DNA of 64,000 bases from Candidatus Nomurabacteria bacterium (GTDB lineage Bacteria; Patescibacteriota; Minisyncoccia; Phycocordibacterales; UBA9973), in NCBI GenBank assembly GCA_003155695.1, contig PMDZ01000005.1, forward strand, positions 49,913 through 113,912. The letters are read 5' to 3'. Shown here in pieces: positions 6,591 to 21,000 of the stretch (positions are counted from its first letter, which is position 1; each line of letters opens with the position of its first letter). The notes below the pieces were generated by a model. The model ran no database searches. It was not told the origin of the DNA and saw nothing but the letters and a program-made list of their open reading frames with translations. Position numbers and translations under genes: made by a program.

Positions 6591-6791
6591 TTATTTGGCG
6601 ATATAGGGAAGTAACCCCATAAAACGTGCGCGCTTGATGGCCATGGCCAGCTTTCTTTGATTCTTGGCTGTGACATCGGTGCGATGTCGGGCCAGCATGC
6701 GAGCCGAAGGAGAGAGAAATCTTTTCAGAACTTCTATATCCTTGTAGTCAATATGTTTGATATTGTTCGATGAAAAATAATCTTGTTTCAT
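6591..6791 (-). CDS. rpsR: 30S ribosomal protein S18
   Basis: A 66-aa protein with RFLSPSARMLARHRTDVTAKNQRKLAMAIKRARFMGLLPY. It sits in the canonical rpsF-ssb-rpsR arrangement. Confidence 0.85.
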   Translation of the reverse strand: MKQDYFSSNNIKHIDYKDIEVLKRFLSPSARMLARHRTDVTAKNQRKLAMAIKRARFMGLLPYIAK

Positions 6792-6798
6792 TTTTTTT

Positions 6799-6830
6799 AA
6801 TTCGTAATTCGTAATTATTAATTCGTAATT
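6799..6830 (-). repeat. Heptamer-repeat leader element (CGAATTA)n on the coding strand, followed by A7 and the rpsR ATG
   Basis: The plus-strand sequence is aattcgtaattcgtaattattaattcgtaatt. About 30 nt are identical to the element at 14475-14492. It lies between the ssb stop (6833) and the rpsR start (6791), and no Shine-Dalgarno sequence is visible. Confidence 0.6.
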
Positions 6831-6832
6831 GA

Positions 6833-7297
6833 TTAGAACGGTATATCTTCGGCATTAATCTGTTCTTCCGGATATTCGATTGTATCCAGCTCTCCCTCAT
6901 CTTTATCTTCAGCGGGTGTAGTCTTTGATGCAGATGCCTGACTAGTTACTCCACTTTTAGCTCCGCCGCTATTGGAACCAAATTGAATTCTGTCGGCAAT
7001 AACTTCGGTTCGGTATTTTTTGGTATTTGTCGCTGCATCATCCCAACTTCTTGTCTGCATCCGACCTTCTACCATAACCTGACTTCCCTTTTTCATATAT
7101 TGAGCAGTCGTTTCGGCTTGCCTCCCGAAGACAACGACATTGTGGTAATCTGCGGCTTCTTGTTTGGCTCCATTTTTATCTTTCCAAACGCGATTTGTTG
7201 CAACAGAGAAACTACAAACTTTTATACCTGAAGGGATGGCCTTGAGTTCCGGGTCTCGGGTTAAGTTACCGATTATAAATACTTTGTTTAAATACAT
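6833..7297 (-). CDS. ssb: Single-stranded DNA-binding protein
   Basis: It has an OB-fold N-terminus (MYLNKVFIIGNLTRDPELK...), a Gly/Ser-rich linker and the acidic C-terminal DIPF tail. Confidence 0.9.
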   Translation of the reverse strand: MYLNKVFIIGNLTRDPELKAIPSGIKVCSFSVATNRVWKDKNGAKQEAADYHNVVVFGRQAETTAQYMKKGSQVMVEGRMQTRSWDDAATNTKKYRTEVIADRIQFGSNSGGAKSGVTSQASASKTTPAEDKDEGELDTIEYPEEQINAEDIPF

Positions 7298-7328: not shown

Positions 7329-7841
7329 TTATACCACTAGGGCCTCAATTTCTTTGTCTATCGTTTCTTCATTTATTTTTTCTACTTCCTCAATCTTCGG
7401 AGTATAACGGCGCTTGTTACCATCTTGTCTTGAGTATGAACGTTTGACCGACATTGTATTCTCGCGAACTGTTTTAATCAAGAGGTATCGAACAAGTTTC
7501 TCATTCTTGTCCAGAATATTTTTTATAACTCTAGCCTGGTCGGTATTACATTCAAACTTCACCCAACCAAAATAGCCATAAGAGAACTTCTGGCTCTTAT
7601 TGTTAATAGAGCGGGACATGACGTAAGCCAGCTCTATCAGTTTAGGATATTCATCGGAAATAAAAACTGCTCCATTTTCCAAAAACATATCCTTAAATGC
7701 CGTGACTTCACCACCAAGGTTTTCCTCGGCAATTGTCGGCACCATAATGTAACCCACTTCATAAACACCAAGACGAACCTCCTTTTCTTCTGAGACATCT
7801 TCTTCAACGACACCTTCAATATTCTTTTTTGTTCTTGCCAT
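7329..7841 (-). CDS. rpsF: 30S ribosomal protein S6, with N- and C-terminal extensions
   Basis: It has an S6-like core (YEVGYIMVPTIAEEN...) and sits immediately upstream of ssb-rpsR in the conserved order. The first ~22 aa are an acidic extension, so the true start may lie further downstream. Confidence 0.7.
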   Translation of the reverse strand: MARTKKNIEGVVEEDVSEEKEVRLGVYEVGYIMVPTIAEENLGGEVTAFKDMFLENGAVFISDEYPKLIELAYVMSRSINNKSQKFSYGYFGWVKFECNTDQARVIKNILDKNEKLVRYLLIKTVRENTMSVKRSYSRQDGNKRRYTPKIEEVEKINEETIDKEIEALVV

Positions 7842-11825: not shown

Positions 11826-13097
11826 TTAGAATTTTAGGATTTTCTTGAACTTACCGCTATCTTTAAATGGCCCGATAATAGCAAGGTTTAAGTTTTTGAT
11901 TTTGAATATAATCTTTGCCATTTTTTGTATGTCGTTTGAGGTTACCTCCTGAATTTCTTTAATTTTCGTCTCAAGAGTTTTTATCTCTCTTTTCATAAGT
12001 TCTTGAGTACCGTAAAAACTGGCAATATCATCAGTCGCCTCAAGGGACATTTTTATATTCCCTATCAAGAATGATTTAACTTTATTTAATTCTTTCTCCT
12101 CTACTTTTCGATTCACCAAATTGTCGCACTCTTTCAATATTTCTTTTATGACTTCTTCGACTCGTTTATTATTGACTCCAGCCGATATTTCGAAACTTCC
12201 GTAGTCAAGTGATGTATTATTAAACGCTCTGACATAATAAGCCACACCCATTTCTTCGCGAAGTTTAATAAATAATCTAGAACTCATTCCGGCACCAAGA
12301 ACTCCGGAAAGCAAGGAAAGAATCATATTCCTTTTATCAAAGAGTGAAAAAGTGCGGACTCCAAGAACAAAATGTGTCTGGTCCGTTTCTTTAAATTTTA
12401 CCAATACTTTGGGATTTGTTTGAACATCTTTTGTTTTTGATTTTTTGATTTTTGTTGTAGATTTTATATTTTTAAAATATTTTTCTGCTTCTTTATAGAC
12501 TTCCTTATTTGTAATATTCCCTGAGACGATGATAACAGTACTGGCGGCAACATAATGACTGCTCTTATAATTTACAAAGTTATCCCGAACCATTTTGTGA
12601 ATATTTTCTTTTGTTCCGGCAATGCTCCACCCGGCTGGTTGATCACCGTATAAAACTTCATCGAACAAATCCTGAACGTGCGCTTGTGGAATATCTTCAT
12701 ACATATTTATTTCCTCCGTAATAACTCCTTTTTCTTTTTCTATTTCTTTTTCCGGAAAAGTCGAATTTAGATATATATCGGAAACAACATCGAAAATTTG
12801 TTTAAAATTTTTGGCATCACCTTTGGCATAATAGCCGGTCAATTCGTGGTCGGTAAAAGCATTATATTGGCAACCCAGAGAATCAAGCTCGTGCGATATG
12901 GCTTGAGCATTTTGCCGCTTTGAAGTCCCCTTGAAGCACATGTGCTCAAGAAAGTGTGAAATACCATTTATCTCTTTTGTTTCATAATTGCTCCCTGTTC
13001 CGACAAGGACAAGGACTGTCACTGTCGGATTATCCTTCATCGGCACAGTCACGACTCTAAGCCCGTTTTTATACGTCTTTTTGATGGCTTTTTGCAT
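11826..13097 (-). CDS. M16-family (insulinase/pitrilysin-like) zinc peptidase
   Basis: It has the inverted zinc motif HFLEHMCFKGT (HxxEH) and two M16 half-domains. Confidence 0.8.
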   Translation of the reverse strand: MQKAIKKTYKNGLRVVTVPMKDNPTVTVLVLVGTGSNYETKEINGISHFLEHMCFKGTSKRQNAQAISHELDSLGCQYNAFTDHELTGYYAKGDAKNFKQIFDVVSDIYLNSTFPEKEIEKEKGVITEEINMYEDIPQAHVQDLFDEVLYGDQPAGWSIAGTKENIHKMVRDNFVNYKSSHYVAASTVIIVSGNITNKEVYKEAEKYFKNIKSTTKIKKSKTKDVQTNPKVLVKFKETDQTHFVLGVRTFSLFDKRNMILSLLSGVLGAGMSSRLFIKLREEMGVAYYVRAFNNTSLDYGSFEISAGVNNKRVEEVIKEILKECDNLVNRKVEEKELNKVKSFLIGNIKMSLEATDDIASFYGTQELMKREIKTLETKIKEIQEVTSNDIQKMAKIIFKIKNLNLAIIGPFKDSGKFKKILKF

Positions 13098-13166: not shown

Positions 13167-14468
13167 TTAATTCATTTTATCTTTTATATAGTCAATTATA
13201 TCTTCTTTTTTTATTCTTTCTTGATTGCCTGTATCGCGGTCACGGATAGTCACTGAATTATCGGTAAGAGTATCAAAGTCGATGACGATGCACCACGGTG
13301 TACCGATTTCATCTTGTCTTCGGTAACGTTTTCCGATATTACCATTGTCATCCCACATAACTCGTCCGAATTCATCTTTGAGTGCGCGATAAACCAAGTG
13401 AGCATAATCACGAAGTTCCTGTTTGTTTTTAAGAAGTGGAGAAACAGCACAAATAACCGGAGCGACGGTCGGACTGAAAGCCAGATACGGTCTTACTTCT
13501 TCCCCACTCATGTCCTCTTTATAGACACTCGATAAAATGGCAAGAATAATTCTATCTACTCCAAAAGTAGGTTCTACTACATGCGGAATAATTTTTGTAC
13601 TTGTCTCCTCGTCTTGATAGAAAAGATTATGATTCTTCAAATCAAAATCGGTTCTATATGCCAATCCATAAAGTTCCTTCTGTCCGAATGGAAAATCAAA
13701 CTCAAAATCAATCGTGCGTTTGGAATAATGAGCCAAGTCTTCCTTTTCGACTTCAAGCTCATGAACTTTATTCATGTCTACACCCACCATTTCAACCCAA
13801 GCAAGTGTTTCATTTTTCCAATATTCAAAATATTTTTCCCAATCTTCTTCTTTCAAAAAAAATTCAATTTCCATTTGCTCAAATTCCCTGACGCGGAAAA
13901 CAAAGTCACGGGGAGTTATTTCATTCCTGAAAGCCTTTCCGATTTGCGCCATACCGAAAGGAAGTTTTGGATGAAATGAATCAACAATATTTTTGAAATT
14001 TACAAACATTCCCTGAGCCGTTTCCGGACGTAGATAAACTATAGCCGAAGAATCTTCAACGGCTCCAATATGAGTTTTAAACATCATATTGAAAAGACGC
14101 ACTTCCCCGGTCTTTCCCCCACAATCATCGCAAATCCCTTCAACTTTCAATTGGTCGGCGCGAAAACGCCTTTTGCATTTTGTACATTCAACCAAAGGGT
14201 CTGAAAATGTATCGACATGCCCGCTTGCTTTCCAAACCGCCGAATTCATAATAATCGCCGCATCAACACCATATATATCTTCCCGAGAATCAACAAACTT
14301 TTTCCACCAAAGATTTTTTATATTATTTTTTAGAGCCACTCCGAGTGGCCCATAGTCGTAAGTTCCGGCAAGTCCACCATATATCTCTGAGCCCTGATAA
14401 ATGAATCCTCTTCTTTTGCAAAGCGATATTATTTTTTCCATTAAATTGTTTTCGTTTTTTTCTTGCAT
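13167..14468 (-). CDS. glyQS: Glycyl-tRNA synthetase, class II alpha2-type
   Basis: It contains MEKIISLCKRRGFIYQGSEIYGGLAGTYDYGPLGV, the class II motifs and a C-terminal anticodon-binding domain. The preferred start is MQEKNENN at 14468, directly after the heptamer/A-run leader. The longer ORF to 14537 would translate the repeat itself. Confidence 0.85.
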   Translation of the reverse strand: MQEKNENNLMEKIISLCKRRGFIYQGSEIYGGLAGTYDYGPLGVALKNNIKNLWWKKFVDSREDIYGVDAAIIMNSAVWKASGHVDTFSDPLVECTKCKRRFRADQLKVEGICDDCGGKTGEVRLFNMMFKTHIGAVEDSSAIVYLRPETAQGMFVNFKNIVDSFHPKLPFGMAQIGKAFRNEITPRDFVFRVREFEQMEIEFFLKEEDWEKYFEYWKNETLAWVEMVGVDMNKVHELEVEKEDLAHYSKRTIDFEFDFPFGQKELYGLAYRTDFDLKNHNLFYQDEETSTKIIPHVVEPTFGVDRIILAILSSVYKEDMSGEEVRPYLAFSPTVAPVICAVSPLLKNKQELRDYAHLVYRALKDEFGRVMWDDNGNIGKRYRRQDEIGTPWCIVIDFDTLTDNSVTIRDRDTGNQERIKKEDIIDYIKDKMN

Positions 14469-14474
14469 TTTTTT

Positions 14475-14492
14475 AATTCGTAATTCGTAATT
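14475..14492 (-). repeat. Heptamer-repeat leader element (CGAATTA)n followed by A6 and the glyQS ATG
   Basis: The plus-strand sequence is tttttaattcgtaattcgtaattatta. It lies between the upstream stop (14494-14496) and the glyQS ATG (14466-14468). The block is identical to the element before rpsR. Confidence 0.6.
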
Positions 14493-14493
14493 A

Positions 14494-16395
14494 TTATTGT
14501 ACCACTCTTGCATTAGTTTGAATAAAGTTTGGATCATTCAATAATAAGGTAGTAATAGCCCCATAGTTATCTTTGATTACCGTATTTGTAAATGAATCCG
14601 TACCGGACAGAAAAACTTCCTTCATAAGTTGGGGAACACTATCCACCTGAGACAAAGAAGGACTAATAGAAATAATGAAGGAAATTTCACGATTTGAATT
14701 TATTCCAGTACCGGGAAGAACTGAACCCATGTTCCAAATCACTTCTCTGGTGACATCATTATAAGTTAAATTATCGTTTTGTCCCGAAGCGAGTCCTACC
14801 CATTTAATATATATCGGTAAAGCTGAACGTGCTTGCGCTTGAGTTATACTATTTGCCGAATTTGAAAGAGTCCAGGTAACTATGTATTTCGTTTCGGTTT
14901 CCGCCTTTGGAGGCATACTACCGGAAAGATAATAAGCAGATGAGGCAATTTGAAAATCAGATGATACTTTGACTATTTTTTCGGAAAAATTATTTATGTC
15001 ATCATAAGTAGAACCTAGGAGTGGTTTCCTACCTTTAATACTGACTTTAATGGAGATTTGTGGACTTTTTGCTATATATGATGAATTAATGAGAGAAAGT
15101 GGTTTCAAACTGAAAGTAACTGACCCTTTTCCGCCCGGATTTATTTCTGCCAGTTGCGGGGTTGAATTTCGGTCCCAAATAATTTGATTTTTGGCTGAAT
15201 CATAGAAACCGTTATTGGGATTGACGCTACTCTTGTCAAAGACATTTCCGGATAAACTTACAATTATTTGTCCATCAGTTATACGTGTCGGCAAATTATT
15301 CGCCCAATCTATCTCGGCATTAATAGTCTCGCCTCCTGAAACAACATATTCTGTTTTATCTTGACCATCAACCAAAATATGAGCATCAAGGAATGGTTTT
15401 GCGATAAGAATTTTCTGTAAAATGGAACTATAAACAACATTCACTGTCGATCGGTCGGTTCCGTTTGTCGTTCCCGCATAGGCATGGAATACTTGTTCGT
15501 CACCATCTTGGCCGATAAGTCTTCCCTTAATTTCAACAGTTATAGGATTGGTAAGGGAAAGAGATGAAATATCCCAAATAGAATTTCCCAAGAGTGGAGT
15601 AGGTGTAGCACTATCAAAGACAAAATTAGTGGGATATATGACTTGTAATATAGGACTTTCTCCTGTCAAAGAAGTATTGAGTGTGGCTGTGATACTAAAA
15701 GATATCGGCTGATTGGAAATGGCATCCGTAGGAGCATCTACATTAAGAGAAAGTGGCGCTAAACTTATTGTAACAGGATAATATTTGTCTTTGGAAAAAA
15801 TTGCATTTGACCCTTCCGGATGGTATTCCAAACTGATTTTTACATTTCTAACCGATTTCTCTTCTCCAAAAAGTGTAACTTTAATATTGCGGAGGACACT
15901 TTCCCCTGGCTTGATTGTTCCAATGGAATCTCGAGGTAGGCGAACAACGTCAGTCGTATTGTCATCCGCTCCTTTAGGATATTCGACAATCAAATCCGCC
16001 AATTCAAGACTTGCGGCATTGTTATTGGTAATTTCAATTTGAAGGGGTAGTTCATCTCCACCTTTGGTGAAAGAATTACCTACTACGTCTATATTTATTT
16101 TATCACTTGAAACAGAAACATCATTTTGAGAAAATTTATAATAAGCAAATCCAAGCGCTCCGACAAAAAAGATAATCGAAGCGATAAAAAACTTTTTGAA
16201 TACTGACATTGGTGGTTTTATAAATATACTATTTATACCACCTTCTTTTTTTGTTGCCTCATCACTCCATTTTCCAAGAACCTTGTGTTTTACCGGATGT
16301 AATATTCCCTCTCTCTGGTGCCCAATGGTCTTATCATTGGGGTCATAAAGGTTTCTTTTTATATCTTCGATTTTGTTTTTATTCTCTTCATGCAT
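14494..16395 (-). CDS. Large membrane-anchored surface protein with repeated beta-rich (Ig/CARDB-like) modules; function unknown
   Basis: A 633-aa protein with a ~65-aa cytoplasmic N-terminus and a single TM (FFIASIIFFVGALGFAYY). Five to six repeated segments of alternating hydrophobic/polar beta-strand pattern follow (ISFSITATLN, SVTFSLKPLS, EISFIISISPS). Confidence 0.4.
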   Translation of the reverse strand: MHEENKNKIEDIKRNLYDPNDKTIGHQREGILHPVKHKVLGKWSDEATKKEGGINSIFIKPPMSVFKKFFIASIIFFVGALGFAYYKFSQNDVSVSSDKINIDVVGNSFTKGGDELPLQIEITNNNAASLELADLIVEYPKGADDNTTDVVRLPRDSIGTIKPGESVLRNIKVTLFGEEKSVRNVKISLEYHPEGSNAIFSKDKYYPVTISLAPLSLNVDAPTDAISNQPISFSITATLNTSLTGESPILQVIYPTNFVFDSATPTPLLGNSIWDISSLSLTNPITVEIKGRLIGQDGDEQVFHAYAGTTNGTDRSTVNVVYSSILQKILIAKPFLDAHILVDGQDKTEYVVSGGETINAEIDWANNLPTRITDGQIIVSLSGNVFDKSSVNPNNGFYDSAKNQIIWDRNSTPQLAEINPGGKGSVTFSLKPLSLINSSYIAKSPQISIKVSIKGRKPLLGSTYDDINNFSEKIVKVSSDFQIASSAYYLSGSMPPKAETETKYIVTWTLSNSANSITQAQARSALPIYIKWVGLASGQNDNLTYNDVTREVIWNMGSVLPGTGINSNREISFIISISPSLSQVDSVPQLMKEVFLSGTDSFTNTVIKDNYGAITTLLLNDPNFIQTNARVVQ

Positions 16396-18044: not shown

Positions 18045-21000
18045 TATTTTTTTATAACAATTTTAAATGCTAACTCATCAATCTTTATTTCAGTACCGTC
18101 GTTTTCTTTAATCACTATATCTTTAGCGCTGACAGCTTTCATTAATTCTTTATTGAATTTATTTATCAATTCTTGTCCATCAGTATTAGTACTAATAATT
18201 AAAGTCACCATATCATTTGGATTTAATCCATTCTTTTTCCTTATATCTTGTACTGCTCTTAAAAGTTCACGATACTGGCCTTCCTTTTTTAATTCTTCGG
18301 TAATATGAGTATCTAATTCAACCTTAAATTCTTCTCCTTTTTCAGTCTTGATTTTTTTTATGTTTAATTCATCTCTTATAATTTCCGCATATTCATTTCG
18401 TAATTCGTAATTCGTAATTCGTAATTCTCCAAGCGGTTGTCGAACCGGCAGTCCGGCTTTTTGCCTCTCTTGCAAACCAAGCGTAACAATTTCTCTCACT
18501 TCTTTCATTTCTTCAATTATCTTTTCTTCATTTTTCCCTTTTGATTTTGGCCAATTTTCAAAATGCACACTTTCTTTATCATTTTTATTCTTTAGTTTCT
18601 GCCAAATATCTTCGGAGGCAAAAGGGGTAAAAGGCGCCATCAATTTGGAAAGTGTTTTCAAGACAAAATATAAAGTTGTCTTGGCTTCCGCTTCGCCATC
18701 TTTGATTCTTTCGCGCGAACGGCGCAGATACCAAGTTGAAAGGTCATCGATAAATAGACGTATTGCGCGAACTGGTTCGAGGAGTTTGTAATCATCAAGT
18801 TGTTTTGTTGTATTTTCTATAAGTTCGTTCAGACGGACAATAATCCATTTGTCCAAAATATTTTCGGAACCTTTGTATTCGGAAACTTCCAATGCCGAGT
18901 CTCGGTAAAGTTCGTAAAAGGCCAGAACATTGTAAAGCAGATTGAAAACTTTATTATGCAATTCCGAAACCGTCTTTTCATCAAAGTTTTTCGATTCACC
19001 CGGTTGATTGACTCCATACATCCATAGTCGAATTGTATCAACTCCATATTTATCAATCATTGTCCAAGGGTCGACAACATTTCCTAGAGATTTGGACATT
19101 TTTTTTCCATTGGCATCGAGCAGATGGCCAAGACAAATAACATTCTTGTAAGCTTTGCCTTTGCCCATAATCACTCCGACGGCATGTAGTGTGTAGAACC
19201 AACCCCGAGTTTGGTCGATGGCTTCACATATAAAGTCTGCCGGGTAGTTTTTGTTCACAAAATCTTTATTTTCAAACGGATAATGGTCCTGTGAAAATGG
19301 CATTGTACCGGAATCAAGCCAGACATCCATGACTTCTTTTGCTCGCTCCAATTTTCCACCGCAATCACAGACAAGTTCAACCTCATCTATATATGGTTTG
19401 TGTAAATCGAGCTCGTAATCCTCATTATGAGGAAGAGGAATAAAATCAAATTCTTCTATCTCGGCGTTATCGAATTCTCTAATTGGACCTTTCTTTTCCA
19501 GGTCAGAAAAAGAAAAACCATTAGCTATAAACTGTAACCCCGCAGTTACACCACCATGACAAACAATTAAAATATTTTTATTTTTATATTCTGAATCAAT
19601 TTCATAAATGTAATCACCTAATCTCTTTACCAATTGAGTAAAACTTTCACCATTCATAACTTCATTATCTGGAATATGAATATAATCATGCTCATAATAT
19701 TGGGTAACTTCTGTTTTTGATTTTCCTTCAAAACCACTTCCTATCTCCCACTCTCGTATACGTTTATCGTAAATAATTTTTTCTTGAGGAAATTTAATTA
19801 TTTTACTGGCTATTTCAGCTGTTTGTTTAGCCCTTAAAAAGGGAGAAGAAATTATCACATCAATCTTTTCGTTAAAATTATTCATGGATTTTATCACTTC
19901 TTCTTTACCTAACTCTGTCAATATTGCATTATGTTGGGAATCCATATAAAAATTTTTTTCAACATTATTACTTGCCTGCCCATGCCTCATGACAAAATAC
20001 TTATTCCCAGATTTTTTGGTTTTTGATTTTAAATCTTCGATGCTTCCGATGACATCAACTTTTTTACACTTATCGCAAATCCAGACCGGAAGTGGTGTCC
20101 CCCAGTATCGCTCGCGGGATATTGCCCAGTCCTTTATTTCACGGAGCCATTCGCCGAAACGCCCTTCTTTAATGTATGACGGTTCCCAATTTATTCCTTC
20201 ATTTTCTTTGACCATCTTGTCCCGAAGTTCCGACATTCTGATATACCAGGAATCGCGGGCATAATAAATCAGCGCCGTTTTACATCGCCAACAGTGTGGG
20301 TATGAGTGCTCATATTTTTCTTTCTTGAAGAGAAGACCACGATGTGCCAAATCTTTAATGATATCAACAGCTACCGCTTCATCACGAACAAACCTTCCTT
20401 CAAGAAAATCTGTTCCACCTAAAAATTTTCCATCAAGCCCCACCAGGTGATGTTTCGGCAAACCTATTTCATTTCCCAAGACAAAGTCATCGATACCGTA
20501 CATCACTGCCGTGTGAACCACACCTGTTCCATCTTCGGTATTGACGAAACCGGCACTGTAAACTTTGTAAGCTTTGCTCAATTTTTGTTTTTCGATATCC
20601 GAGATTGTATTCGAAAGGTATGGGTAGAGAGGTTCATATTCAAGTCCGATTAAATCTTTACCTTTCATTTCACCCACCACTTCGTATTCCCCCTCGACAA
20701 CTTGCAACCTTTCTTTGGCCAGAATATAAAATTCATTTTCTTTTTTTATTTTTACGTAGTCGATTTTCTTCCCGATAGCCAGAGCCACATTTCCTGGTAG
20801 TGTCCACGGCGTCGTCGTCCAAGCTAAGATGTAAGTAGGCGTAACATTTTCTGATTTCTCCGTCGCGTCGGAGCCCTTTAGGGTAAAGCGCGAAGAAATC
20901 TGAAAATGTGAAGCCGTTGAAACTTTAAATTTCGCATACACCGACAAATCTTTGACATTCTCATATCCTTGAGCCAGCTCATGCGAAGAAAGCGCCGTTC

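Follow-up and report, generated by a model that had tools for sequence, protein, structure and literature searches.

A heptamer array in the rpsR leader of a Candidatus Nomurabacteria genome as a probable member of a genus-restricted, fast-turnover repeat family

What is the short repeat that fills the space between ssb and the ribosomal protein gene rpsR in Candidatus Nomurabacteria bacterium? The locus lies in a 64-kb stretch of contig PMDZ01000005.1 (assembly GCA_003155695.1), referred to here as the window, where a heptamer array and a run of A separate the ssb stop codon from the rpsR start codon. An earlier note on this DNA described the repeat as a conserved element that forms the entire rpsR leader and recurs at glyS and inside ileS. 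It proposed a dedicated initiation or coupling element, possibly an autoregulatory site for S18 or S6, or else a small dispersed repeat family. Our analysis favors a form of the last proposal. With a probability of roughly 55%, the rpsR repeat is one member of a genus-restricted, fast-turnover family of AATTANN heptamer arrays that are solo arms of elements resembling intervening sequences (IVS), or have grown in place, or both, and is not a dedicated initiation or autoregulatory element.

Heptamer arrays in the window and in the genome

Tandem Repeats Finder (TRF) detected three (AATTACG)n arrays in the window, all on the minus strand: one before rpsR, one before glyS, and one inside ileS (Table 1). 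On that strand, the ssb stop (TAA-tc) is followed by AATTACG, AATTAAT, AATTACG, AATTACG and a final AATTA, so that five AATTA stand in phase with the unit order ACG, AAT, ACG, ACG. The A-run and the rpsR ATG come next. The repeat and A-run therefore do make up the whole rpsR leader, as had been claimed, and TRF also confirmed the copies at glyS and in ileS. The glyS array occupies the 25-nt spacer at 14469-14493 and begins at the upstream gene's stop context, TAA-TAATTA. The ileS array encodes ELRITNYELR; the remark that slippage of a 7-nt unit changes the frame is correct, and it is relevant to this copy. Neither the rpsR nor the glyS spacer contains an ATG, GTG or TTG between stop and start, and the rpsR spacer holds no Shine-Dalgarno (SD) sequence and no TGnTATAAT promoter. 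The identity of about 30 nt reported between the two leaders is real as a block, which measures 29 nt, but it does not bring the start codons into register: rpsR carries one extra A before its ATG.

The arrays are far denser than expected by chance. CGAATTACGAATTA, with at most one mismatch, matches the window five times (0.08 expected), and AATTANNAATTA matches it ten times (1.63 expected); none of 100 shuffles reached either count. Nine of the ten AATTANNAATTA matches fall within the three arrays, all on the minus strand. Little structure is predicted in the leaders. The rpsR leader reaches a folding energy of -1.6 kcal/mol, which 180 of 200 shuffles equal or surpass; for the glyS leader the value is -1.4 kcal/mol, no different from its shuffles. 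The window holds one other repeat of period 7/21 (TTTTGAT, 6.6 copies, 75% matches) at 12429-12473, within an open reading frame (ORF) of 423 aa at 11826-13097. It is not of the AATTANN type.

The genome of the window, G000, belongs to a bacterium of the Candidate Phyla Radiation (CPR) and comprises 772,949 bp in 12 contigs with 37% G+C. DNA of the window was also found, in the form of contigs, in at least 20 sequencing runs, with peat and permafrost among their sources; one RNA run contained it at a share of 0.15. Below, C4, C5 and so on are contigs of G000, other G numbers are genomes of the same genus, and L numbers are extracted loci. The whole-genome census of arrays was conducted in G000, and the relatives were compared by individual loci. 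Exact (AATTACG)n runs of at least 14 nt occur at nine loci in G000 and share an identical 19-mer. The second commonest 12-mer of the genome is AATTACGAATTA, with 31 copies, and AATTAATAATTA (24 copies) and AATTAAGAATTA (23 copies) are close behind. Distances from one AATTA to another are concentrated at 7 nt (132 cases), 14 nt (110), 21 nt (83) and 28 nt (46), compared to 11-39 cases at each of the other offsets from 4 to 29 nt, where about 15 are expected. We counted 35 chains with at least three in-phase AATTA, or AATTANN arrays, at 24 loci, a total in which a few palindromic TAATTA-type arrays are entered on both strands. The 105 units most often end in CG (31), AG (21) or AT (19), and other endings are rarer. 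AAT is the second unit in 11 of the 35 arrays against an overall share of 18%, a weak bias (p = 0.04). The 3' ending ACGAATGAAAAA is common to the arrays in NifS, in a 375-aa protein and in the secY-adk spacer. The suggestion of a small dispersed repeat family was thus well founded. Kinship of the arrays with other intergenic repeat families of G000 was also considered; the sequences are unrelated and no kinship was seen.

A period of 7 nt dominates the tandem repeats of this genus. When a strong array is defined by a TRF score of at least 40 and at least 2.8 copies, period 7 makes up 21 of 46 strong arrays in G000. It also makes up 42 of 70 in 747 kb of relatives' loci, a sample that is biased because 12 of the loci were fetched via the repeat itself and some loci overlap. 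The heptamers of the relatives are AATTANN, CTAGNNN and AGTAGNN.

Placement was classified by our reading of the array listing against crude ORF calls. By these calls, 29 of the 35 chains are intergenic. A start codon lies no more than 10 nt from the end of twelve arrays, seven of them in sense orientation (rpsR, glyS, rplW, rplX, C6:51479, C11:1956 and a PF05635 gene) and five antisense (before fpg on C7, C12:54957, C4:33976, C5:25744 and C8:43546). At three convergent gene ends, an array follows each stop, and the inverted pair flanks a terminator hairpin. Five ORFs carry in-frame copies: IleRS, a NifS-like desulfurase, TrmD, an S-adenosylmethionine (SAM)-methyltransferase and the 375-aa protein. 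All five are in sense orientation, the only one without stop codons. Arrays are found even in 16S rRNA, where the loop of helix 40 is 109 nt long compared to 4 nt in the Rfam model. In this insert, AATTAAG-type arrays and their complement fold into a hairpin (-41.7 kcal/mol, z -6.84). Altogether, arrays form inverted pairs at seven loci, namely a cassette on C5, the helix 40 insert and five others. Antisense copies, convergent gene ends, coding sequence and rRNA all speak against a dedicated initiation or coupling element and against an S18 or S6 autoregulatory site, and they remove a tempting misreading of the rpsR leader.

The helix 40 insert (L043:2715-2850) is species-specific within the genus and ranges from 40 to 126 nt across 12 loci. 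In G020 it consists of AAAGTT-type repeats of 8-9 nt, which are also present in the rpsR leaders of other species.

In the ribosomal-protein cluster of contig 9, most junctions are 1-10 nt long (TAAATATATG-like), and arrays occupy the longer spacers rplD-rplW, rplN-rplX, rpsN-rpsH, rplF-rplR and secY-adk. A role of the arrays as stop signals in three frames was rejected, since the stops in the rpsR and glyS spacers all lie in one frame.

Turnover of the arrays among relatives

The rpsR, glyS, ileS and NifS-like sites were each compared across 30 loci or species of the genus. Among 24 other genomes of the genus, 7 contain the 19-mer with at most one mismatch, and none of 16 genomes from 16 other families of the order does; a reversed control pattern gave no matches anywhere. 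The ssb-rpsR spacer varies from 5 to 120 nt (29 measured of 30). Only 3 of 30 rpsR leaders have at least three in-phase AATTA, and 7 of 30 have two. The remaining leaders contain CTAG-heptamer hairpins, GC-rich hairpins or plain A/T. G024, the closest sampled relative (95% S18 identity), has an rpsR leader without an array. The glyS spacer ranges from 2 to 127 nt and is at most 6 nt long in 12 of 30 loci. Arrays of at least three in-phase AATTA occur in 5 of 30 glyS leaders, and their units differ: AATTACG x2.7 in G000, AATTAAG x8 in G024 and x3 in G050, and ACC units in G053. The arrays at rplD-rplW, rplN-rplX, rpsN-rpsH and rplF-rplR are equally sporadic across 13-21 genomes. The repeat is absent or different in most congeners, so it can be called neither conserved nor a dedicated leader element. 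The ancestral state at the rpsR, glyS and ribosomal-protein junctions is a short spacer.

Two coding sites behave differently from one another. In ileS, the array is not an insertion, as ELRITNYELR matches array-less orthologs residue for residue (for example, KLKIKNYTLK). AATTA arrays are found in 8 of 30 species at this site and are homogenised within each species without a change in length, with ACG x4 in G000, G041 and G024, ACC x3 in G004, and ACA x3 in G053. In the NifS-like gene, arrays are found in 10 of 30 species and lengthen a loop by 7-9 residues. Four of these 10 species carry a GC-rich hairpin (CCTGCC...GGCAGG) inserted cleanly at the unit centre, between AA and TT. This suggests that AATT within the arrays is the target of a second mini-element. 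The hairpin is 20-36 nt long and in frame in L132, L133, L135 and L157 (the NifS-like genes of G004, G005, G019 and G047), and it is also present in the 375-aa ORF on C5 of G000 and in the rpsR leaders L023 and L039. We rejected the idea that the heptamers are 7-bp target-site duplications of this hairpin, as the insertions in NifS of G004, G005 and G019 are clean and add no unit.

From the comparison at the rpsR, glyS, ribosomal-protein, ileS and NifS-like sites, we conclude that arrays are gained, lost and homogenised fast. They would expand, contract and homogenise through 7-nt slippage or conversion. The genus offers clear comparative material for such changes, with arrays that come and go at orthologous junctions and homogenise in essential coding sequence without a change in length.

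The same data bear on a simpler explanation, a pure microsatellite. Here, each locus would slip independently from TAATTA-type stop seeds with 7 nt as the favored step, there would be no tie to IVS-like elements, and the arms of cassettes would arise from the same mutational bias. The glyS arrays start at a stop-codon TAATTA in 9 of 30 loci, unit and copy number vary between species, and orthologs without the ileS array already show AATTA periodicity in the codons concerned (AATTAaagattaagAATTAc in G049, for example), the array bringing no change in length. Long simple sequence repeats (SSRs) of prokaryotes, with units of 5-11 nt, offer a parallel: as summarized in PMC4679880, heptanucleotides are the most abundant of them, a slippage origin has been proposed and their phylogeny is sporadic (Mrazek, Guo and Shah 2007). 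Unlike what that summary describes for long SSRs, the arrays here have unit order and flanks in common from locus to locus, form paired inverted arms at seven loci and are tied to gene boundaries. Independent slippage also fits poorly with CG-containing units that recur at nine loci with an identical 19-mer in a genome of 37% G+C, with the identical 29-nt block at two genes, with the shared ending ACGAATGAAAAA and, weakly, with the preference for AAT as the second unit. These shared features suggest copying between loci rather than independent birth. We consider the pure microsatellite unlikely overall, and it is the alternative that we take most seriously. Growth in place is part of the preferred reading as well, in which 7-nt slippage and conversion may have built arrays out of TAATTA contexts at stop codons.

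PF05635 cassettes and other heptamer repeats

The other part of the preferred reading is a link to IVS-type elements. The only PF05635 (23S-rRNA-intervening-sequence protein) gene of G000 lies at C5:26334-26648 (116 aa, E 1.7e-28). It abuts an AATTAAG x4 array, and behind its stop codon lies another array in inverted orientation. Both the minimum free energy (MFE) fold and the centroid fold pair these arms in a stem of about 30 bp (z -3.46), and none of 100 shuffles folds as well. One array type thus provides the arms of an IVS-type cassette and of the 16S expansion hairpin. The cassette (C5:26265-26705; L126:1262-1712) is located between the gene of the 375-aa protein and a small membrane-type gene. 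The equivalent junction holds a PF05635 cassette with other heptamers in G041, G054, G056, G019, G049 and G004.

A PF05635 match was found in 19 of 41 genus genomes. Flanks were analyzed for the 17 best of 24 rows, the seven weak or partial ones being dropped. Among lags of 4-11 nt, the best self-identity is at 7 in all 17 upstream flanks and in 14 of the 17 downstream ones. At 11 of the 17 loci the arms are more complementary than any of 200 shuffles, by an ungapped score that undervalues arms with indels. The heptamer of the cassette varies by species and by copy (AATTANN, CTAGNNN, AGTAGNN, GCTTTTA and others), and complementarity is retained. In G016, G020 and G048, the PF05635 cassette sits within the ssb-rpsR spacer. 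Cassettes, gene-less heptamer hairpins and solo arrays are therefore all found at ssb-rpsR in this genus, so that one junction shows them as a series. On the preferred reading, the arrays before rpsR and glyS would be one-armed (solo) relatives of IVS-like elements with heptamer arms.

Several observations weigh against this reading. No inverted partner of the rpsR, glyS and ileS arrays was found in the window, where all copies are on the minus strand, so that the term 'solo arm' is itself our interpretation; these three arrays also enclose no PF05635 ORF or loop. PF05635 is present in 5 of 7 genomes with the AATTACG 19-mer compared to 5 of 17 others, a difference that is not significant (p = 0.075) among incomplete metagenome-assembled genomes, and G024 has arrays and no PF05635 match. 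The glyS arrays begin at a TAATTA stop context that is common in relatives, which fits growth in place without any element. Two further findings would fit a function better. An identical 29-nt block stands before two genes, rpsR and glyS, and ribosomal-protein rows account for 6 of 15 array-bearing same-strand junctions compared to 23 of 557 others (p = 3.6e-5; this category was chosen post hoc).

A broader and more tentative proposal, which we consider unlikely, would make solo arrays, gene-less hairpins and PF05635 cassettes three states of one mobile element class. The four-helix-bundle protein would recognize the period-7 arms, and the elements would colonize and remodel stop-to-start spacers, coding sequence and rRNA in bacteria that have no anti-SD. 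Some arms might then be co-opted as sites for RNase III or other processing, or to space re-initiation and thereby tune how much is made from internal cistrons, those of ribosomal proteins for example. Should solo arrays and IVS cassettes indeed be linked, this bears on why 7-nt repeats dominate the long repeats of bacteria and on the role of the 23S-rRNA-IVS protein family.

PF05635 ORFs are known from rRNA insertions of CPR bacteria (PMC11270868). The article text, supplements being outside our search, uses neither 'inverted repeat' nor 'tandem repeat'. A structural parallel comes from Coxiella burnetii, whose IVS is described in PMC4990558 as having two to three tandem GACAGAT heptamers just before the ATG of S23p, variable between strains and placed within a 28-bp terminal stem. 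According to the same account, this IVS is cleaved by RNase III. A terminal inverted-repeat stem, which in the IVS surrounds a four-helix-bundle ORF, is also seen in the G000 cassette and in the hairpin of 16S helix 40. Unlike the Coxiella IVS as described there, the rpsR, glyS and ileS arrays have no partner arm or ORF, and the G000 cassette lies between protein genes and not in 23S rRNA.

The described system nearest to the arrays is the TAACTGA family, whose repeats are found in marine Beggiatoaceae as well as in some Cyanobacteria and Bacteroidetes. As far as the account in PMC4679880 goes (MacGregor 2015), these resemble the arrays here in their 7-nt unit, two to six copies in each set and many sets per genome, and in their patchy taxonomic spread. 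They are likewise mostly intergenic, lie a few nt before starts, overlap upstream stops, occur in ribosomal-protein operons before genes without an SD, and have few in-frame copies in ORFs. Differences from the repeats in that account are that the unit here is AATTANN with two variable last bases, and that sister species have other heptamers (CTAGNNN, AGTAGNN). In addition, the host G000 has no anti-SD at all, arrays stand before starts in both orientations, and they also form the inverted arms of a PF05635 gene and a 16S hairpin. Rickettsia palindromic elements are also small, non-autonomous repeats of a reduced genome, located before starts in operon spacers and in frame in housekeeping genes. 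Unlike them, the heptamer arrays are tandem rather than palindromic, and the weak leader folds given above are no better than shuffles. This CPR genus joins the few lineages (Beggiatoaceae, cyanobacteria, Bacteroidetes and the Coxiella IVS) that have heptamer arrays right before starts. In the literature on tandem intergenic repeats in Patescibacteria, supplements being outside the search, we found no report of an AATTANN repeat.

Translation initiation and the genes at the arrays

How are rpsR and glyS translated behind such leaders? The 3' end of the G000 16S rRNA, GGAAUAAUUCAAUU, was aligned by Rfam to GGAUCACCUCCUU of the model and contains no CCUCC. Of 20 other genus genomes with a 16S match, 19 have exactly this tail; the exception, G003, has a different 16S with 74% identity. 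Upstream of 761 crude ORF starts, no positional peak was seen for GGAG, AGGA or GAGG. The earlier note was right that the rpsR leader has no SD, but its AGGAG-type sites at other genes are not supported by these counts. The missing SD of the rpsR and glyS leaders follows from the tail without CCUCC and from the lack of a genome-wide SD signal, and it is a trait of the whole lineage. By the same logic, the relatives that share this tail have no SD leaders either. What the comparison of relatives found is therefore a repeat that is not conserved, and not ordinary SD leaders in its place. In a Parcubacteria subgroup, the anti-SD motif was detected less often, according to Tsurumaki et al. (2022; PMC9297842).

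A different signal stands before the starts. TATAAT peaks there with 36 sites at 6 nt and 32 at 7-9 nt (68 in total for 761 starts), and the -10 is of the extended type TGnTATAAT, in which the TG positions have T at a frequency of 0.70 and G at 0.67 (73 sites). Of the 761 starts, 232 lie within 15 nt of a preceding stop on the same strand. Judging from these patterns, genes of G000 start either leaderless, preceded by TGnTATAAT at a distance of 6-9 nt from the ATG, or in tight coupling with an upstream stop. The base at position -1 is T in 59% of the 761 starts.

The partial 16S gene lies at the end of contig 11 on the minus strand (L043:2364-3080), and its tail GGAAUAAUUCAAUUUGAA is conserved to the base though unused in SD pairing. 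RNase P RNA (class A, 123.8 bits) is located at L043:1542-1850 on the same strand, about 500 nt downstream of the 16S gene, and no 23S gene was found within the 2.3 kb of L043 downstream of 16S.

On the preferred reading, the arrays need no role in initiation. Like all genes of the organism, rpsR and glyS would be translated without SD pairing, and ribosomes that finish the upstream cistron would presumably start again after a further 25-41 nt. The arrays would then persist as harmless spacers that are unstructured, A/U-rich and free of start codons; they may be tolerated because a terminating ribosome still reaches the next ATG over 25-41 nt of open A/U-rich RNA.

A functional translational element would go further. 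The A/U-rich array could be a landing pad for S1 or another single-strand RNA-binding protein and replace the SD at loosely coupled internal cistrons. A landing pad for a protein has been proposed for the Beggiatoaceae TAACTGA repeats, which in that account also stand just before starts, in ribosomal-protein operons and rarely with an SD (PMC4679880). The arrays end 5-8 nt before the ATG, the leaders are unstructured, arrays are enriched at ribosomal-protein junctions, and G000 has an S1-like gene, whose 169.5 bits fall short of the family cut-off. This reading nevertheless does not explain why the arrays are not conserved at orthologous junctions, where the genus default is a spacer of 1-6 nt without an array, why 5 of 12 start-proximal arrays are antisense, or why arrays also follow stops at convergent ends and occur in ORFs and in rRNA. 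We judge a landing pad to be rather improbable. The S1-like gene, at C11:62791-64038, has about four S1 domains and was scored against rpsA. A heptamer array lies directly after it, followed by a terminator flanked by an inverted array.

A re-coded SD would have GAAUUA of the repeat pair with UAAUUC of the altered, strictly conserved 16S tail at normal SD spacing. The duplex of the rpsR leader with the tail has -6.2 kcal/mol, a value attained by just 23 of 761 upstream regions, and the tail is the same in nearly all genus 16S matches, as noted above. Across the genome, though, the pairing of upstream regions with the tail does not exceed that of shuffled sequences (mean -2.6 vs -2.68 kcal/mol; 23 vs 30 at -6 kcal/mol or below), and GAATTA, GAATT and TGAAT have no positional peak before the 761 starts. 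Antisense arrays cannot pair with the tail, and leader and tail do not co-vary, since relatives keep this tail and yet have different leaders or no leader. With no positional signal genome-wide and no excess of energy over shuffles, we rejected this altered pairing as a general mechanism and regard it as very improbable for the arrays. Pairing of the leader with the complementary arm of helix 40 was rejected too, as the helix 40 insert of G024, a genome with AATTAAG arrays, is unrelated in sequence.

In some pathogens, heptamer repeats in promoters are known to act as switches. Control at the DNA level, with the array acting as an operator, an internal promoter or a phase-variable contingency repeat that tunes expression by copy number, would be in keeping with the variation in copy number between species. 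Against this, the arrays, including those in the rpsR and glyS leaders, contain no TGnTATAAT, the promoter type of G000, and they are located in ribosomal-protein operons and before essential housekeeping genes, not surface genes. The first of these points also led us to reject the arrays as promoters of leaderless transcripts. DNA-level control is, in our opinion, the least probable of the explanations considered.

The features of the window discussed here are collected in Table 1.

Table 1. Heptamer arrays and the genes that carry or flank them in the window
Feature	Position	Strand	Basis
Heptamer array, rpsR leader	6798..6830	-	Tandem Repeats Finder: period 7, 4.7 copies, 84% matches
Whole spacer from ssb stop to rpsR start, 41 nt, array-filled	6792..6832	-	Sequence
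29-nt block identical to 14468-14496	6792..6820	-	Longest common substring
Heptamer array before glyS, AATTACG x2.7, 100% matches	14474..14492	-	Tandem Repeats Finder
Heptamer array inside ileS, AATTACG x4.4, 100% matches, in frame	18397..18427	-	Tandem Repeats Finder
rpsR, ribosomal protein S18, 66 aa	6591..6791	-	Pfam PF01084, E 1.1e-21
ssb, single-strand DNA-binding protein, 154 aa, cistron upstream of rpsR	6833..7297	-	Pfam PF00436, E 1.7e-40
rpsF, ribosomal protein S6, 170 aa, first in the rpsF-ssb-rpsR row	7329..7841	-	Pfam PF01250, E 5.2e-9
glyS, class II glycyl-tRNA synthetase, 433 aa	13167..14468	-	Pfam PF00587 and PF03129
633-aa protein without Pfam match, cistron upstream of glyS	14494..16395	-	Pfam search
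ileS, isoleucyl-tRNA synthetase, 1169 aa	18044..21553	-	Pfam PF00133, PF08264, PF00300, PF19302

The N-termini of orthologs (M(Q/E)EK..LMEKIIS) place the true GlyRS start at the ATG at 14466-14468, directly after the array, and not at the ATG further upstream with which the longest ORF begins. Within the genus, the C-terminus (..ERV[VI]Q) of the 633-aa protein encoded before glyS is conserved. In IleRS, Pfam finds a nested histidine-phosphatase domain (PF00300) at residues 520-687, which correspond to positions 19439-20008 of the window.

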